Source of the DNA: a virus | Taxonomy: Duplodnaviria; Heunggongvirae; Uroviricota; Caudoviricetes | DNA: 4,141 nucleotides | Virus record (IMG/VR): IMGVR_UViG_2671181106_000002 | Reading direction: 5' to 3' (one strand) | In this document: positions 1 to 4,141 of the stretch, piece by piece | Position numbering within the stretch: the stretch's first letter is position 1 | Layout: the number at the start of each line of letters is the position of its first letter | Position numbers and translations under genes: made by a program | Notes under the pieces: model-generated | Told to the model about the DNA's origin: nothing | Databases searched by the model: none | What the model saw: only the letters and a program-made list of their open reading frames with translations

Positions 1-959
1 TTCCCGAGAGTGGTAAAGGAGAGGCCCTGGAAATACCCCACAGCCCCGAAAAAGAGCCAGTCAGTTGCTTAACTGACTGGCATTACAGCAAACTGGAGGA
101 GTTTTCGAAAGAGTGGAAAGACGCCAACGATAAATGGAATGCCATGTGGGGCGTCAAAATTGAGCAGACCGAAGACGGCAGGCATTATGTCGCGGGTATT
201 GGCCTCAGCATGGAGGATACGGAGGAAGGCAAACTGAGCCAGTTCCTGGTTGCCGCTAACCGTATCGCGTTTATTGACCCGGCAAACGGGAGTGAAACGC
301 CGATGTTTGTGGCGCAGGGCAACCAGATATTCATGAACGAAGTGTTCCTGAAGTATCTGACGGCTCCCACCATTACCAGCGGCGGCAATCCGCCGGTATT
401 TTCCCTGACACCGGACGGGCGGTTGACGGCGAAAAATGCCGATATCAGCGGTAACGTGAATGCGAACTCAGGGACGCTCAATAATGTCACGATTAACCAG
501 AACTGTCGGATTCTGGGAAAACTGTCTGCCAACCAGATTGAAGGTGATATTGTCAAAACGGTGGGAAAAGCCTTTCCGAGAAATGGCAGTTATGCCAGCG
601 GTACAATAACGGTCACTGTGTACGATGACCAGGCTTTTGACCGTCAGATAGTAATCCCACCCGTTCTGTTTCGCGGTGGTAAGCATGAAAACTTCAACAG
701 CAACAACCAACAGTCATACTGGTATTCAACCTGTAAGCTGCAGGTACTGAAGAACGGACAGGAAATCTTTCAGCAACCCGCGACGGATGTCAGCAGGGTA
801 TTTTCATCCGTCATTGATATGCCAGCGGGACACGGCCATGTCACCCTGACTTTCAATGTTTCTTCATATGGTGCAAATAACTGGACGCCAACGACCAGTA
901 TCAGCGACCTTCTTGTTGTCGTGATGAAGAAATCAACAGCCGGTATCAGTATCAGTTGA
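1..959 (+). CDS. J: Central tail fibre / host specificity protein J, C-terminal part (5'-truncated by window edge)
   Basis: Frame 3 is open from position 3 with no stop until TGA at 957-959; the listed ORF 144..959 is only the part after the first in-frame ATG. The translation ([48 protein letters not shown]...[15 protein letters not shown]...IDMPAG.G...) matches my recollection of the C-terminal receptor-binding region of phage lambda gpJ, including its characteristic ending (...KK...GISI/V). The last ~170 residues look more diverged than the first part. Confidence 0.9.
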
Positions 960-977
960 ATTTTATAACCCAAATAC

Positions 978-1006
978 GGGCGCCAGAAATGGCGCCTTTT
1001 TTATTT
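978..1006 (+). terminator. Rho-independent terminator downstream of J (tJ-like)
   Basis: Perfect 6-bp GC-rich inverted repeat GGCGCC (979-984) / GGCGCC (991-996) with a 6-nt loop AGAAAT, followed directly by TTTTTTATTT (997-1006). It lies 20 nt after the J stop codon. Confidence 0.7.
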
Positions 1007-1017
1007 GTGGAGTGAAT

Positions 1018-3078
1018 ATGGCAGTACAGATTTCAGGCGTGCTGAAAGACGGTGCAGGAAAACCAATACAGAACTGTACTATTCAGCTCAAAGCAAAGCG
1101 TAACAGCACCACGGTACTGGTGAACACGGTGGCCTCTGAAAATCCGGATGAAGCCGGGCGTTACAGCATGGATGTTGAGTATGGCCAGTACAGCGTCACC
1201 CTGCTGGTTGAAGGTTTTCCGCCTTCACATGCCGGGACCATTACCGTCTATGAAGGCTCCAGACCAGGTACGCTGAATGATTTTCTCGGTGCCATGACGG
1301 AAGATGATGTCATGCCGGAGGCATTGCGTCGTTTTGAGGTAATGGTGGAGGATGTGGCACGCAACGCTGAAGCCGCCTCTCAGAGCGCAGCGGCAGCAAA
1401 GAAATCAGAAACAGCAGCGGCATCGTCCAGGAACGCGGCGAAAACATCAGAGACGAATGCAGGTAACAGCGCGAAAGCGGCAGCTTCTTCAAAAACAGCC
1501 GCACAAAACGCAGCAACAGCGGCAGAACGTTCAGAGACAAATGCCCGTGCGTCAGAAGAAGCCTCCGCAGACAGTGAAGAGGCTTCCCGCCGTAATGCAG
1601 AGTCAGCCGCTGAAAATGCCGGAGTCGCCACCACAAAAGCGCGGGAGGCTGCAGCAGACGCAACAAAGGCCGGGCAGAAAAAGGATGAGGCTCTGTCGGC
1701 AGCGACACGAGCTGAAAAGGCGGCAGACCGCGCAGAAGCCGCAGCGGAAGTGACTGCAGAGCCCTATGCGAATATAGTGCCGCCGCTGCCTGATGTGTGG
1801 ATACCGTTTAACGATTCACTGGATATGATTGCGGGTTTTTCTCCGGGCTATAAAAAAATAGCTATTGGTGACGATGTGGTTCAGGTCGCCAGTGATAAAC
1901 AGGTTAATTTCAGTCGCGCATCAACGGCAACATATATCAACAAATCTGGCGAACTGAAAACGGCGGAAATTAATGAGCCGCGATTTGAGTGTGATGGCCT
2001 GCTTATTGAGGGACAAAGAACGAACTACATGCTCAATTCGGAAAGTCCAGCCAGCTGGGGGAAGTCATCAAACATGGATGTGCCCGAAACCGGGACGGAT
2101 AGTTTTGGTTTTACTTATGGAAAGTTTGTCTGCAACGATTCTCTGGTTGGGCAAACTTCGGCTATTAATATGGCATCAATTGCTGCAACAAAGTCAGTTG
2201 ATGTCTCAGGCGATAACAAGTACGTGACAACCTCATGCCGTTTTAAAACAGAACGACAGGTAAGGTTACGTATACGGTTTGATAAGTATGATGGTAGTGC
2301 AACAACTTTTCTTGGCGATGCGTACATTGATACGCAAACGCTTGAAATTAATATGACAGGTGGTGCTGCCGGCAGAATTACGGCACGAGTCAGGAAGGAT
2401 AAGACCACGGGCTGGATTTTTGCAGAGGCAACGATTCAGGCAATTGATGGTGAGTTAAAAATAGGCTCTCAGATACAGTATTCTCCTGAGCAGGGTGGGG
2501 CAACAGTATCTGGTGACTATATTTATCTTGCCACCCCACAAGTAGAGAATGGGCCGTGTGTATCATCATTTATTATTTCAGGAGGCAGCGCAACGACAAG
2601 AGCCAGTGATTTGGTTAGTATCCCCACCAGAAATAATCTTTATAAGTTACCATTTACTTTTTTACTTGAGATTCATAAAAACTGGGATATTGCACCAAAC
2701 GCCGCACCCCGCGTGTGGGATATAGCAGCAGCCAATACCGGGCAATCAGCAATTGCAGCAATCAACAGAGGTAGTGGTAAGTTATATATGAGTCTGTCAA
2801 ACCCTTCAGGCTCGTATGTTAATAGCGCAGCGACAGATGTATTTGCAGAGAAAACCACATTTGGATGTATTGCAAAAGCTGATGGTCACTTTCATGTGGT
2901 GACAAATGGTAAAGCGGTTAATGAAGTTTATTGTGAATATAATGGCGTGACCGCTGATAAAAATATCCGATTTGGAGGGCAGACGAATACTGGAGAACGA
3001 CATCTGTTTGGCCATATTCGCAATTTCCGCATATGGCATAAAGAATTAAATGACAGGCAATTAAAAGAGGTCGTATGA
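1018..3078 (+). CDS. stf: Side tail fibre protein (Stf-like) with mosaic C-terminal receptor-binding module
   Basis: 686-codon ORF. ATG at 1018 is preceded by GGAG (1009-1012) with a 5-nt spacer; the track's ORF begins 6 nt earlier at an in-frame GTG (1012). N-terminus MAVQISGVLKDGAGKPIQNCTIQLKA...GRYSMDVEYGQYSV...FPPSHAGTITVYE resembles the conserved N-terminal domain of lambda Stf / lambdoid side tail fibres as I recall it. It is followed by an Ala/Ser/Glu-rich region with KTSETNA / RSETNA motifs, also Stf-like. The C-terminal ~440 aa are unrelated to the Gly/His-rich lambda Stf C-terminus. Stop TGA at 3076-3078. Confidence 0.9.
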   Translation: MAVQISGVLKDGAGKPIQNCTIQLKAKRNSTTVLVNTVASENPDEAGRYSMDVEYGQYSVTLLVEGFPPSHAGTITVYEGSRPGTLNDFLGAMTEDDVMPEALRRFEVMVEDVARNAEAASQSAAAAKKSETAAASSRNAAKTSETNAGNSAKAAASSKTAAQNAATAAERSETNARASEEASADSEEASRRNAESAAENAGVATTKAREAAADATKAGQKKDEALSAATRAEKAADRAEAAAEVTAEPYANIVPPLPDVWIPFNDSLDMIAGFSPGYKKIAIGDDVVQVASDKQVNFSRASTATYINKSGELKTAEINEPRFECDGLLIEGQRTNYMLNSESPASWGKSSNMDVPETGTDSFGFTYGKFVCNDSLVGQTSAINMASIAATKSVDVSGDNKYVTTSCRFKTERQVRLRIRFDKYDGSATTFLGDAYIDTQTLEINMTGGAAGRITARVRKDKTTGWIFAEATIQAIDGELKIGSQIQYSPEQGGATVSGDYIYLATPQVENGPCVSSFIISGGSATTRASDLVSIPTRNNLYKLPFTFLLEIHKNWDIAPNAAPRVWDIAAANTGQSAIAAINRGSGKLYMSLSNPSGSYVNSAATDVFAEKTTFGCIAKADGHFHVVTNGKAVNEVYCEYNGVTADKNIRFGGQTNTGERHLFGHIRNFRIWHKELNDRQLKEVV
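1354..1750 (+). repeat. Low-complexity Ala/Ser/Glu-rich degenerate repeat region inside stf (fibre shaft)
   Basis: The protein segment ...EAASQSAAAAKKSETAAASSRNAAKTSETNAGNSAKAAASSKTAAQNAATAAERSETNARASEEAS... has recurring GCx/TCx/GAx codons and repeated DNA words (tcagagacGaatgc at ~1447 and tcagagacAaatgc at ~1533). The region is open in several frames on both strands, which explains the overlapping shadow ORFs 1352..1753 (+), 1310..1708 (-) and 1380..1634 (-). Confidence 0.7.
2540..3075 (+). other. Probable concanavalin A-like / LamG-like lectin domain at the Stf C-terminus (domain annotation inside stf)
   Basis: The C-terminal segment ...GHFHVVTNGKAVNEVYCEYNGVTADKNIRFGGQTNTGERHLFGHIRNFRIWHKELNDRQLKEVV follows the characteristic end pattern of LamG/ConA-like jellyroll domains (core strand 'HxxVVxxG', then 'xxFxGxIxxxRIY/WxxxLxxxEI/L'). 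This is motif-level recognition only and the domain start is approximate. Confidence 0.45.
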
Positions 3079-3353
3079 AAGATTTAACTTTGAAGTTTCA
3101 TGACAAACTGCAGTTTAAGGCCTTCCTGTCATCTCTTGGCTGGGCGGAAGATGAAGACCTCCAGAATAAACTGTTAGTTGATGAAATTGGTTTCACCTAC
3201 ACAGAAACAGGGGTAACAGAAGAGGGAGAACCTGTCTGTATCCGGAATGATGGTTATTTTGTCAACATTCGCATTCTTGATGACTTGTTTGATGTTTCTG
3301 TATTCTCTGATTATGTCGTGGAGCTGGAAACACCGCTTCGGGAATGGAGCTGA
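3075..3353 (+). CDS. Hypothetical small acidic protein (92 aa), translationally coupled to stf; function unknown
   Basis: The ATG at 3075-3077 overlaps the stf stop (ATGA overlap). AAGAGG (3064-3069) lies 5 nt upstream. The ORF ends at TGA 3351-3353. The product MKDLTLKFHDKLQFKAFLSSLGWAEDEDLQNK... is acidic with no hydrophobic segment. Its AT-rich composition matches the 3' part of stf. It does not resemble the lambda Tfa N-terminus as I recall it. Confidence 0.7.
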   Translation: MKDLTLKFHDKLQFKAFLSSLGWAEDEDLQNKLLVDEIGFTYTETGVTEEGEPVCIRNDGYFVNIRILDDLFDVSVFSDYVVELETPLREWS

Positions 3354-3360
3354 AAGGAGG
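3354..3360 (+). promoter_or_regulatory. Shine-Dalgarno sequence for the downstream membrane-protein ORF
   Basis: AAGGAGG at 3354-3360, then a 5-nt spacer (AAATA) and ATG at 3366. It sits immediately after the orf92 stop, giving an operon-like arrangement. Confidence 0.8.
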
Positions 3361-3365
3361 AAATA

Positions 3366-3806
3366 ATGGATATAAGCCCCTTACTTCATGCACTTTGTGC
3401 TGTGGCTGCGCAGATACTGGTTGGTCTTTTTACCGGAAACTGGGCTTACGGAGCGATAGCCGGTTGTACGTTCTTCATTGCGCGTGAACATACCCAGGCA
3501 GAATATCGCTGGATTGAAATGTTCGGGCATGGCAAGCGAATGAATATGCCGTGGTGGGGCGGTTTTGATCCGCGTGCTTGGGATGTGGCAAGCCTGATGG
3601 ATTTTGCTGTGCCGGTGGTGGCGTGTCTGCTGGTCTGGCTGTTGGTTAATCGTGGGCGAAAAAAGGTGAGCTGTATATGCAACGGAGGAAGAAACCCCGT
3701 TGCTGGAAGCCAGGAAAAAGTATCGGGTGTTGCTGTCCTCGGATGTTGTGCTAATTGGGTGATAACAGATCCTGTGTATGGGAGTTTCCCTTTTTGCGTG
3801 CGTTGA
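3366..3806 (+). CDS. Hypothetical small membrane protein (predicted 2-3 transmembrane segments); C-terminal extent uncertain
   Basis: Strong RBS. Hydrophobic stretches at about residues 8-40 (LHALCAVAAQILVGLFTGNWAYGAIAGCTFFIA) and 73-95 (WDVASLMDFAVPVVACLLVWLLV) are followed by basic NRGRKK. The GC-richer composition differs from orf92. The final ~45 codons (VSCICNGGRNPVAGSQEK...FCVR) have an atypical Cys/Gly-rich composition and overlap the 3' end of the convergent permease gene, so the true C-terminus may be shorter or the ORF may be junction-derived. Confidence 0.6.
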   Translation: MDISPLLHALCAVAAQILVGLFTGNWAYGAIAGCTFFIAREHTQAEYRWIEMFGHGKRMNMPWWGGFDPRAWDVASLMDFAVPVVACLLVWLLVNRGRKKVSCICNGGRNPVAGSQEKVSGVAVLGCCANWVITDPVYGSFPFCVR

Positions 3807-4141
3807 TGCTGGTAACGGCAAACGTCATGATGAACAAAACCGCGAATAAGACGACAATCGTCGGAGCTGGTGCGCTGTCGATAAAAAAGGACAACCAGAC
3901 ACCAGTCATTGACACTATTACCGATATGCCAGTCGCCAGTAGGAGCGCAATATGAAAGCGTTGTGTCAGGAGTACCGCAATGGCGCCAGGCGCAATGAGC
4001 AGAGAAATGGAGAGAATGATACCTACCGCTTTCAGCGTCGCCACAATGGTCAGAGAGACCATGCACAGCAGCCCATAATGCAGCCATCTCGTATGCAAAC
4101 CGCTTACCTGCGCCTGTTGATAATCAAAGCTAAACTGCATA
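3751..4141 (-). CDS. sitD: ABC-3 family metal (Mn2+/Fe2+) transporter permease, C-terminal part; SitD-like (5' end lies beyond the window)
   Basis: The minus-strand ORF is open to the window edge, with stop TAG (complement of 3751-3753). The translation ...LHTRWLHYGLLCMVSLTIVATLKAVGIILSISLLIAPGAIAVLLTQRFHIA...FFIDSAPAPTIVVLFAVLFIMTF... has the characteristic C-terminal pattern of ZnuB/MntB/SitD-type permeases (compare ZnuB ...VGALIITSLLIIPAATAR...YDTPAGPSVVLCAALLFIL). sit operons are known to lie next to lambdoid prophage DNA in E. coli/Shigella. The sitD assignment is from memory, not a search. Confidence 0.65.
   Translation of the reverse strand, partial: MQFSFDYQQAQVSGLHTRWLHYGLLCMVSLTIVATLKAVGIILSISLLIAPGAIAVLLTQRFHIALLLATGISVIVSMTGVWLSFFIDSAPAPTIVVLFAVLFIMTFAVTSINARKKGNSHTQDLLSPN

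Follow-up and report, generated by a model that had tools for sequence, protein, structure and literature searches.

The DNA considered here is a stretch of 4,141 nucleotides (IMG/VR virus record IMGVR_UViG_2671181106_000002), the whole of which we refer to as the window. It holds a side tail fibre region: the 3′ end of J, the central tail fibre gene (to 959; truncated by IS4 in the window's strain), an intrinsic terminator after J (978–997), the side tail fibre gene stf (1018–3078, + strand), a gene for a 92-residue protein, orf92 (3075–3353, +), a small membrane-protein gene (3366–3806, +) and, at the downstream end on the strand opposite to stf, the 3′ end of sitD. The ATG of orf92 overlaps the stop codon of stf (ATGA) and the two genes are translationally coupled. 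Our subject is an AT-rich island at 1780–3360, which covers the C-terminal part of stf (stfC) together with orf92.

Escherichia coli chromosomes match the 4141-base window at 99.9% identity, at least 80% of it being present in 563 of 5426 complete E. coli genomes, and the side tail fibre regions of the temperate phages 21, mEp460, Perceval, ev207 and ev017 are 96–99% identical to it. In its chromosomal copy the prophage remnant sits at the icd site. The window is a remnant of a phage-21-type lambdoid prophage adjoining sitABCD. Members of the phage 21 group have the same gene order (J, stf, orf92, membrane gene, sitDCBA) and an island which is 99.2–99.9% nucleotide-identical. In phage 21 itself [OL657228] the three genes are CPT_21_22 (stf), CPT_21_23 (hypothetical) and CPT_21_24 (membrane protein), annotated without comment on composition or on a cassette; a full-text literature search found neither the junction motif described below nor a description of phage 21 stf. 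By comparison with phage 21 the window is a degraded prophage copy, in which J is truncated by IS4 and the stop codon of the membrane gene has been lost.

The stf reading frame is intact in the window (686–688 codons). Its 5′ part (1018–1779, +; GC 55%), the conserved left flank of the island, specifies a lambda-type N-terminal anchor followed by an alanine-rich coiled-coil shaft: residues 3–133 correspond to Pfam PF08400 (E=4.8e-67) and the N-terminus matches, by profile, that of lambda Stf in PDB 9e7m (E=9.5e-32). The remainder is a tip module of 431 residues made up of three parts. The conserved proximal part (1783–2721, +) includes a domain (Stf ~296–540) of the same family as the head spike fibre found in RcGTA, the gene transfer agent of Rhodobacter, residues 331–531 scoring 55.7 bits against NCBIfam NF048003 (cut-off 36) and the profile matching Rcc01080 (PDB 6tb9; E=3.3e-7). 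It is followed by a hypervariable segment (2722–2960, +; Stf ~571–650), which lies inside a putative lectin-like C-terminal domain, and by the conserved C-terminal end of the fibre (...RFGGQTNTGERHLFGHIRNFRIWHKEL...; 2961–3078, +), a putative recombination anchor inside the cassette. DNA homology to other lineages breaks off between 2722 and 2961 and blastn homology restarts at 2961–2972 in every lineage, with residues 658–677 showing 75–100% identity in all carriers of the module. The Pfam scan found no Peptidase_S74/PF13884 autocleaving chaperone domain in Stf, and a place among the fibres that end in an intramolecular chaperone, such as T5 pb1 and DT57C LtfA/LtfB, was rejected.

The GC content of 1780–3360 is 0.4345 and that of the remaining window sequence 0.515 (chi-square p=5e-7), and the third-position GC (GC3) of stfC and orf92 is 0.378 versus 0.544 for the flanking genes (p=4e-9). 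By segment the GC content amounts to 0.502 for the J 3′ end, 0.552 for the 5′ part of stf, 0.437 for stfC, 0.419 for orf92 and 0.503 downstream; within the tip it is 0.447 in the conserved proximal part and 0.412 in the hypervariable segment. An unconstrained two-breakpoint likelihood fit placed the edges at 1806 and 3375 with a log-likelihood gain of 16.4, more than in any of 30 shuffles (mean gain 5.7, maximum 10.7), and both fitted edges fall less than 25 bases from the homology junctions at 1777–1783 and 3353–3355. The initial annotation, based upon inspection by eye, had described 1780–3360 as more AT-rich than the J 3′ end, the stf 5′ third and the downstream genes (43.5% versus 51.5% GC by our count), with edges at ~1780 and ~3360 that coincide with a mosaic breakpoint at the protein level and the orf92 stop. 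The calculations bear this out, and both of the AT-rich strings which it quoted are present, at 1846 and 2633.

The codon usage of stfC deviates beyond what its amino acids would impose. Based upon its amino acids and the codon usage of the late genes of phage 21 (mean GC 0.559), stfC would be expected to have a GC content of 0.519, and the observed value is 0.437. Its third-position GC is 0.37 compared with 0.61 in the late genes, and its likelihood under late-gene codon usage is poorer by ~0.07 nat per codon. The gap of ~12 points is thus made up of roughly 4 points from amino-acid composition and roughly 8 from codon choice. The left step at ~1780 is exaggerated by the alanine-rich coiled coil at 1300–1780, which reaches 55–61% GC. 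In the late arm of phage 21 (nu1 to J) every stretch of 1581 bases has at least 48.0% GC. In phage lambda, whose tip belongs to a different family, the 3′ part of stf has 51.7% GC and tfa 48.9%; lambdoid fibre tips as a class therefore do not share the drop in GC.

The left edge of the island carries a junction motif, PPLPDVWIPFNDSLDM (1780–1827, +), the presumed left recombination junction, common to all carriers, with an abrupt edge at 1777–1783. When nine loci representing five phage groups are aligned as nucleotides, the sequences are unrelated upstream of ~1780 and near-identical from the PPLPDVWIPFNDSLDM codons onward, even in the T5-like phage VSe12. Non-lambdoid blastn matches begin at window 1775–1783 (1772–1789 over the T1-like, T5-like, Queuovirinae and other carriers named next), and lambda, 434 and Stx phages align only to the N-terminal anchor (window ~1000–1410). 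The carriers include T1-like (tunus, tonn) and T5-like phages (VSe12, phC11, AKFV33) and Queuovirinae (ESCO3, Dru_SM1, JenP1/2), among others, those that are virulent having genomes of 39–46% GC. Over 1783–2721 the DNA identity is 79–83% to tunus, ESCO3 and HannyBb, and 64% to VSe12. Of eight carriers compared, seven have a rigid module that runs for 430–433 residues after the motif, and ev058 has one of 418. Their N-terminal parts, 226–360 residues in length, are unrelated; in a protein search the module was found behind PF08400 (lambdoid), PF12571 (P2-type) and PF03406 N-termini. Directly after it every reference carrier has a gene of 92–93 codons, which overlaps or abuts the stop codon of the fibre gene. 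The fibre module, of E. coli type, and orf92 were also found, at 73.6% identity, in positions 63161–64659 of a 99.9 kb record named “Campylobacter phage C13” [MG065692.1], whose size and match suggest that this is a T5-like enterobacterial phage and that its host label is doubtful.

A survey of IMG/VR yielded 77 full-length loci, 74 of them with sufficient downstream sequence for orf92 to be checked, and a homologue of orf92 lies 0–3 bases after the module in all 74. In five phage groups, then, the tip and orf92 form a conserved unit of two genes. At these loci the module has 42.4–45.4% GC and the upstream genes mostly ~56% (range 45–61%), the mean gap being 11.4 points. The proteins encoded on either side are conserved (88–100% identity for the N-terminal part of Stf, 84–100% for the membrane protein) and those in between are variable (71–100% for the module, 47–100% for orf92), so that the island is exactly the variable cassette between conserved lambdoid flanks.

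A P2-like prophage (locus L012, GCA_031791655) carries window 1777–3648 as one collinear block of 88% identity, the single collinear exchange between families that was seen (lambdoid to P2-like). The block replaces the end of the fibre gene in the gpH position and includes the membrane gene (L012 8076–8369), which has 53% GC; the compositional right edge need not therefore be the edge of recombination. The module keeps ~45% GC inside P2 late genes of 60.8% GC, with GC-rich genes on both sides. A truncated Caudo_TAP gene (gpG-type fibre assembly; 74 residues, L012 8612–8836) remains 3′ of the cassette. It would seem that the native P2 fibre tip was displaced by the import and its chaperone put out of action.

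Within the module the relationships change from block to block. Stf residues 258–337 are conserved across all carriers, residues 338–517 are 90–100% identical to HannyBb, ESCO3 and tunus and 20–65% identical to ev058, Dru_SM1 and VSe12, residues 578–657 are only 5–30% identical to all but the phage 21 group and the P2-like copy, and residues 658–688 are again conserved. The product of orf92 is 90% identical to that of ev058 and ~50% identical to the others. Phage ev058 possesses window 143–2027 and 2967–4139, not the stretch between them. The window's copy is a patchwork of sub-blocks with discordant nearest relatives. Nor are these relatives close at synonymous sites: the number of synonymous substitutions per site (dS) is 0.29–0.45 across all blocks for the P2-like copy and, for block 338–517, 0.45 (HannyBb), 0.50 (ESCO3) and 0.73 (tunus). 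Saturation affects most of the other comparisons. Outside the allele group the nearest copies lie at ~0.3–0.5, and the nearest virulent one at ~0.5. Among 50,697 phage records there was no identifiable recent donor and no virulent phage with a copy of more than 95% nucleotide identity across 1780–3353.

Phage 4A7 and its relatives show a break at window 2945, which was considered as a further recombination junction and rejected, being due to an insertion sequence with an 8-base target duplication. This element (locus L007 5484–8015; 4A7, Lambda_4C10, D2, 1W, 3W) has three genes, all annotated as transposase genes, and interrupts stf. Window bases 2938–2945 are duplicated on both sides of it, and the rest of stf, orf92 and the membrane gene are intact downstream.

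The module has 39–45% GC in all carriers and lies 11–12 points below the lambdoid late genes, and its GC is buffered against that of the genome in which it resides. The third-position GC of module and resident genome is 0.284 and 0.285 in VSe12 (T5-like), 0.309 and 0.407 in Dru_SM1 (Seuratvirus), 0.331 and 0.482 in tunus (T1-like), and 0.36–0.38 and 0.614 in the lambdoids; across these four lineages the module follows its resident genome weakly, with a slope of ~0.25. The P2-like module (GC3 ~0.40) and the VSe12 copy (0.284) lean toward their own backgrounds, and counts of synonymous differences agree weakly with this (31 vs 41 for the P2-like copy, 56 vs 36 for VSe12). Only in VSe12 does the composition of the phage match its module, at 64% nucleotide identity; the copies in ESCO3 and tunus, 79–82% identical to the window's, are AT-shifted relative to their own genomes. 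The lambdoid alleles are all equally AT-rich (42.4–45.4%), and the diverged ones compared are saturated at synonymous sites. This uniform AT-richness points to a low-GC gene pool that has persisted, and away from import on a single occasion.

We consider it probable that the island is the exchangeable host-recognition end of the lambdoid side tail fibre locus, the tip module and orf92 having come from a shared low-GC pool. The fibre-tip unit would plug onto unrelated N-termini at the conserved PPLPDVWIPFNDSLDM junction and would circulate among lambdoid, T1-like, T5-like, Queuovirinae and P2-like coliphages. Exchange would most likely take place by homologous recombination at this junction and at the conserved fibre C-terminus with orf92, the membrane-protein gene presumably providing further homology among temperate phages. 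Red-type recombination is known to make stf mosaics between lambda and resident prophages (PMC3945230). The shared pool would hold the module at 39–45% GC, a value equal to that of the resident genome only in T5-like phages; set inside a lambdoid late operon of ~56% GC, such a module stands out as an island. Several observations weigh against this explanation. The gradient across carriers rests on four lineages only. The likelihood of codon usage singles out no donor, that of the phage 21 right arm, of sitABCD and of tunus fitting about equally well. Genome-wide, 10.6% of phage 21 windows are as AT-rich, so that, set against the entire phage, the island is no extreme. As for host recognition, the match of residues 562–683 to Laminin_G_3 (PF13385) reaches 25.0–25.8 bits, below the cut-off of 27.6, and an AlphaFold2 model of the 432-residue StfC tip, from an alignment of 16 sequences, was poor (pLDDT 46) and its fold was not used. 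The phage 21 genes of lower third-position GC are all accessory or regulatory, including bor, ea10, int and one ORF of the b region. The island is foreign to the late operon, yet its composition is typical of phage accessory DNA.

That the tip and orf92 were acquired together in a single recent event from one virulent phage of lower GC (T1-like, Queuovirinae or T5-like) is what one might first suppose, given that the cassette is present in virulent phages of 39–46% GC and that residues 338–517 are 90–100% identical to those of virulent tunus and ESCO3. We regard it as unlikely. The closest virulent copy is at a dS of ~0.5 and most blocks are saturated; moreover, the sub-blocks have discordant relatives, and all lambdoid alleles are low in GC, even those which are 71–73% identical in protein. 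An earlier survey found no mosaics with an identity above 90% between temperate and virulent coliphages (PMC3945230), which agrees with the older divergences seen here. The initial annotation had attributed the fibre tip and orf92 to the horizontal transfer of one cassette from a lower-GC donor. Of this we retain the single portable low-GC unit, seen at 74 of 74 loci, and an ancestry in a low-GC pool; the single event is at odds with the discordant sub-blocks, and a recent donor with synonymous distances of ~0.3–0.5 to the closest copies outside the allele group.

It is also improbable that the island is simply where the AT-rich, non-essential middle of lambdoid genomes in general begins, sitABCD having been inserted into that region afterwards; the island would then tell us nothing particular to the fibre tip. 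Phage 21 has 38.8% GC at 25.4–27.6 kb, the lambda b region has 35.7%, and in lambda too the GC content falls after the tail genes; but the lambda stf 3′ part and tfa, like other lambdoid tips of the lambda and 434 types, stay at ~50%, the module keeps 45% GC within the P2-like late operon of 61% GC, and the island's edges are homology junctions shared with virulent phages. The chances are slighter still that the drop is an artefact of amino-acid composition, in which an alanine-rich coil (GCN codons) gives way to a β-structured tip rich in Asn, Ile, Lys and Thr. The coil is indeed GC-rich and ~4 points of the gap do come from amino acids, but stfC lies 8 points under the amino-acid expectation, and even without an alanine coil the J 3′ end stands 6.7 points above the island; the third-position and codon-likelihood results refute this as a full explanation. 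Accessory DNA in E. coli generally tends to be AT-rich, and this is what can be said for selection of AT-richness in place, whether through H-NS silencing of prophage fibre genes or through slow translation aiding folding. Such selection seems most unlikely, since promoter-like and terminator-like sites are not enriched and the composition is the same in virulent phages, in which there is no prophage state.

Returning to the exchangeable tip, its hypervariable segment is probably the determinant of receptor specificity, and residues 571–650 would then set specificity for a glycan, which might be O-antigen or capsule. Weak matches to concanavalin-A-like lectins cover the C-terminal ~120 residues in seven of eight module members. 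The head spike fibre Rcc01080, to which Stf ~296–540 is remotely similar by profile, serves to attach the particles to polysaccharide of the capsule (PMC7296036). Rather than a tail fibre it is a monomer decorating the head of an alphaproteobacterial gene transfer agent, and its resolved structure comprises the N-terminal residues only.

A nearer counterpart is Gp22 of IrisVonRoten (Tequintavirus, BASEL Bas32), which is homologous from its PLPDVW junction as far as the C-terminus; the two proteins align at 46% identity over 588 residues that take in the coiled coil and the whole module. In a published model Gp22 is a proximal lateral fibre, and its C-terminal domain, which is galectin-like, may bind a receptor in addition (PMC11990801). 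O-antigen is the presumed target of lateral fibres in these siphoviruses (PMC8594841). Its N-terminal anchor is of the T5 type, that of the window of the lambda type. In IrisVonRoten Gp22 is followed, with a 4-base overlap, by a gene of 92 codons (bas32_0023), and this small gene (Gp23) by that for a distal T-shaped fibre, Gp24. The phage-21 type has no distal fibre gene, and the tip module would therefore be its only binding part. The degenerate SETNA/AAKTSE-type repeats of the alanine-rich shaft (window 1380–1760) align weakly to the shaft of Gp22. The LtfA/LtfB fibres of DT57C were rejected as a model, having C-terminal autocleaving chaperone domains (of the Peptidase_S74 type in LtfA; PMC4728585) and no tip homology.

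Scans of Pfam and NCBIfam gave no match for orf92, nor did a comparison of its profile with PDB sequences. Its predicted fold is confident (pLDDT 90.9) and has no informative structural or sequence relative. The family is small and stand-alone, with 80 cluster representatives among 1.84 billion proteins in an exhaustive profile search; matches in large proteins were rejected as artefacts of PKD or TPR repeats. Values of dN/dS of 0.24–0.34 indicate purifying selection, even at loci which lack a distal fibre gene. No significant correlation between orf92 and the fibre sub-blocks was seen in 28 pairs. The IrisVonRoten homologue is annotated as “tail fiber protein.” An accessory role in assembly or structure seems the most likely one for orf92, though we would put it at about an even chance.

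Tail fibre genes are classically exchanged among unrelated phages, examples being lambda Stf/Tfa, P2 H/G, T4 gp37/gp38 and Mu S/U. As in those systems, the C-terminal part and a downstream accessory gene move together here, both across the temperate–virulent divide and across that of siphoviruses and myoviruses. A tip of the lambda Stf/Tfa type (T4 gp37/gp38-like) was nevertheless rejected: lambda matches only ~1000–1410, there is no homology to the lambda Stf C-terminus, and orf92, which has no Pfam or NCBIfam match, is not a Caudo_TAP (PF02413)/Tfa chaperone. Unlike the classical systems, this locus has no invertase in the window.

The right flank of the island is GC-normal and consists of the membrane-protein gene, which belongs to PHROG 1443 (E=7e-58 over residues 1–96). 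In the window its stop codon has been lost at 3657 (TGA in phage 21, CGA here), extending the frame from 97 codons in phage 21 to 146, which overlap the sitD 3′ end; RefSeq calls the gene a pseudogene. Of 57 lambdoid prophage loci, 50 have the PHROG 1443 protein at the end of the fibre locus, its gene standing at one of three set offsets (+291, +1009 or +1377 bases); the protein is 84–100% identical behind very different cassette alleles (e.g. window 3366–3656, L009 6653–6952). In phage Gally the gene occurs alone. Superinfection exclusion or receptor masking are possibilities for its role. Neither this protein nor the tip nor orf92 matched a defence family in PADLOC.

At the other end, window positions 1 to ~85 are the end of IS4 and not J, a hairpin at 56–81 lying inside the IS end, and the majority of genomes align to the window only from position 86 on. 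In NZ_CP033762 a frameshifted IS4 transposase gene stops at window position 72, IS4 being immediately upstream of the J fragment; in the same genome, the closest one (locus L002 7018–9078), which has few differences from the window here, RefSeq divides stf in two, with a pseudogene for the N-terminus and a separate “phage head spike fiber domain-containing protein.” A scan of the window for promoters and terminators gave nothing beyond the terminator after J, and an Rfam scan gave no RNA family match.

A bolder proposal is that the PPLPDVWIPFNDSLDM junction and orf92 constitute an undescribed, near-universal system for plugging in tips across siphoviruses (lambdoid, T1-like, T5-like, Queuovirinae) and myoviruses (P2-like), in which orf92 would be a new class of assembly or adaptor protein, needed with or without a distal fibre, and low GC would mark a pool flowing between virulent and temperate coliphages. 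We think this possible but rather doubtful; if true, it would contradict the view that virulent and temperate coliphages do not exchange genes. Mosaicism of tail fibres is well known, the exchange of their genes having been called “well documented” (PMC3945230), and the island is a clean new example of it, not a new phenomenon. Most of the window is present in roughly one in ten complete E. coli genomes, and the cassette is found in at least five phage groups. Its boundaries are defined by sequence (the junction motif, the conserved C-terminal anchor and an obligatory 92-residue partner), and this makes it useful where host range is to be predicted or engineered, in lambda-based delivery particles as well as in virulent therapy phages. 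In orf92 it also draws attention to an uncharacterized conserved fibre accessory protein. Current understanding is unchanged by these results, which offer a textbook case of composition showing the gene pool of a phage module.

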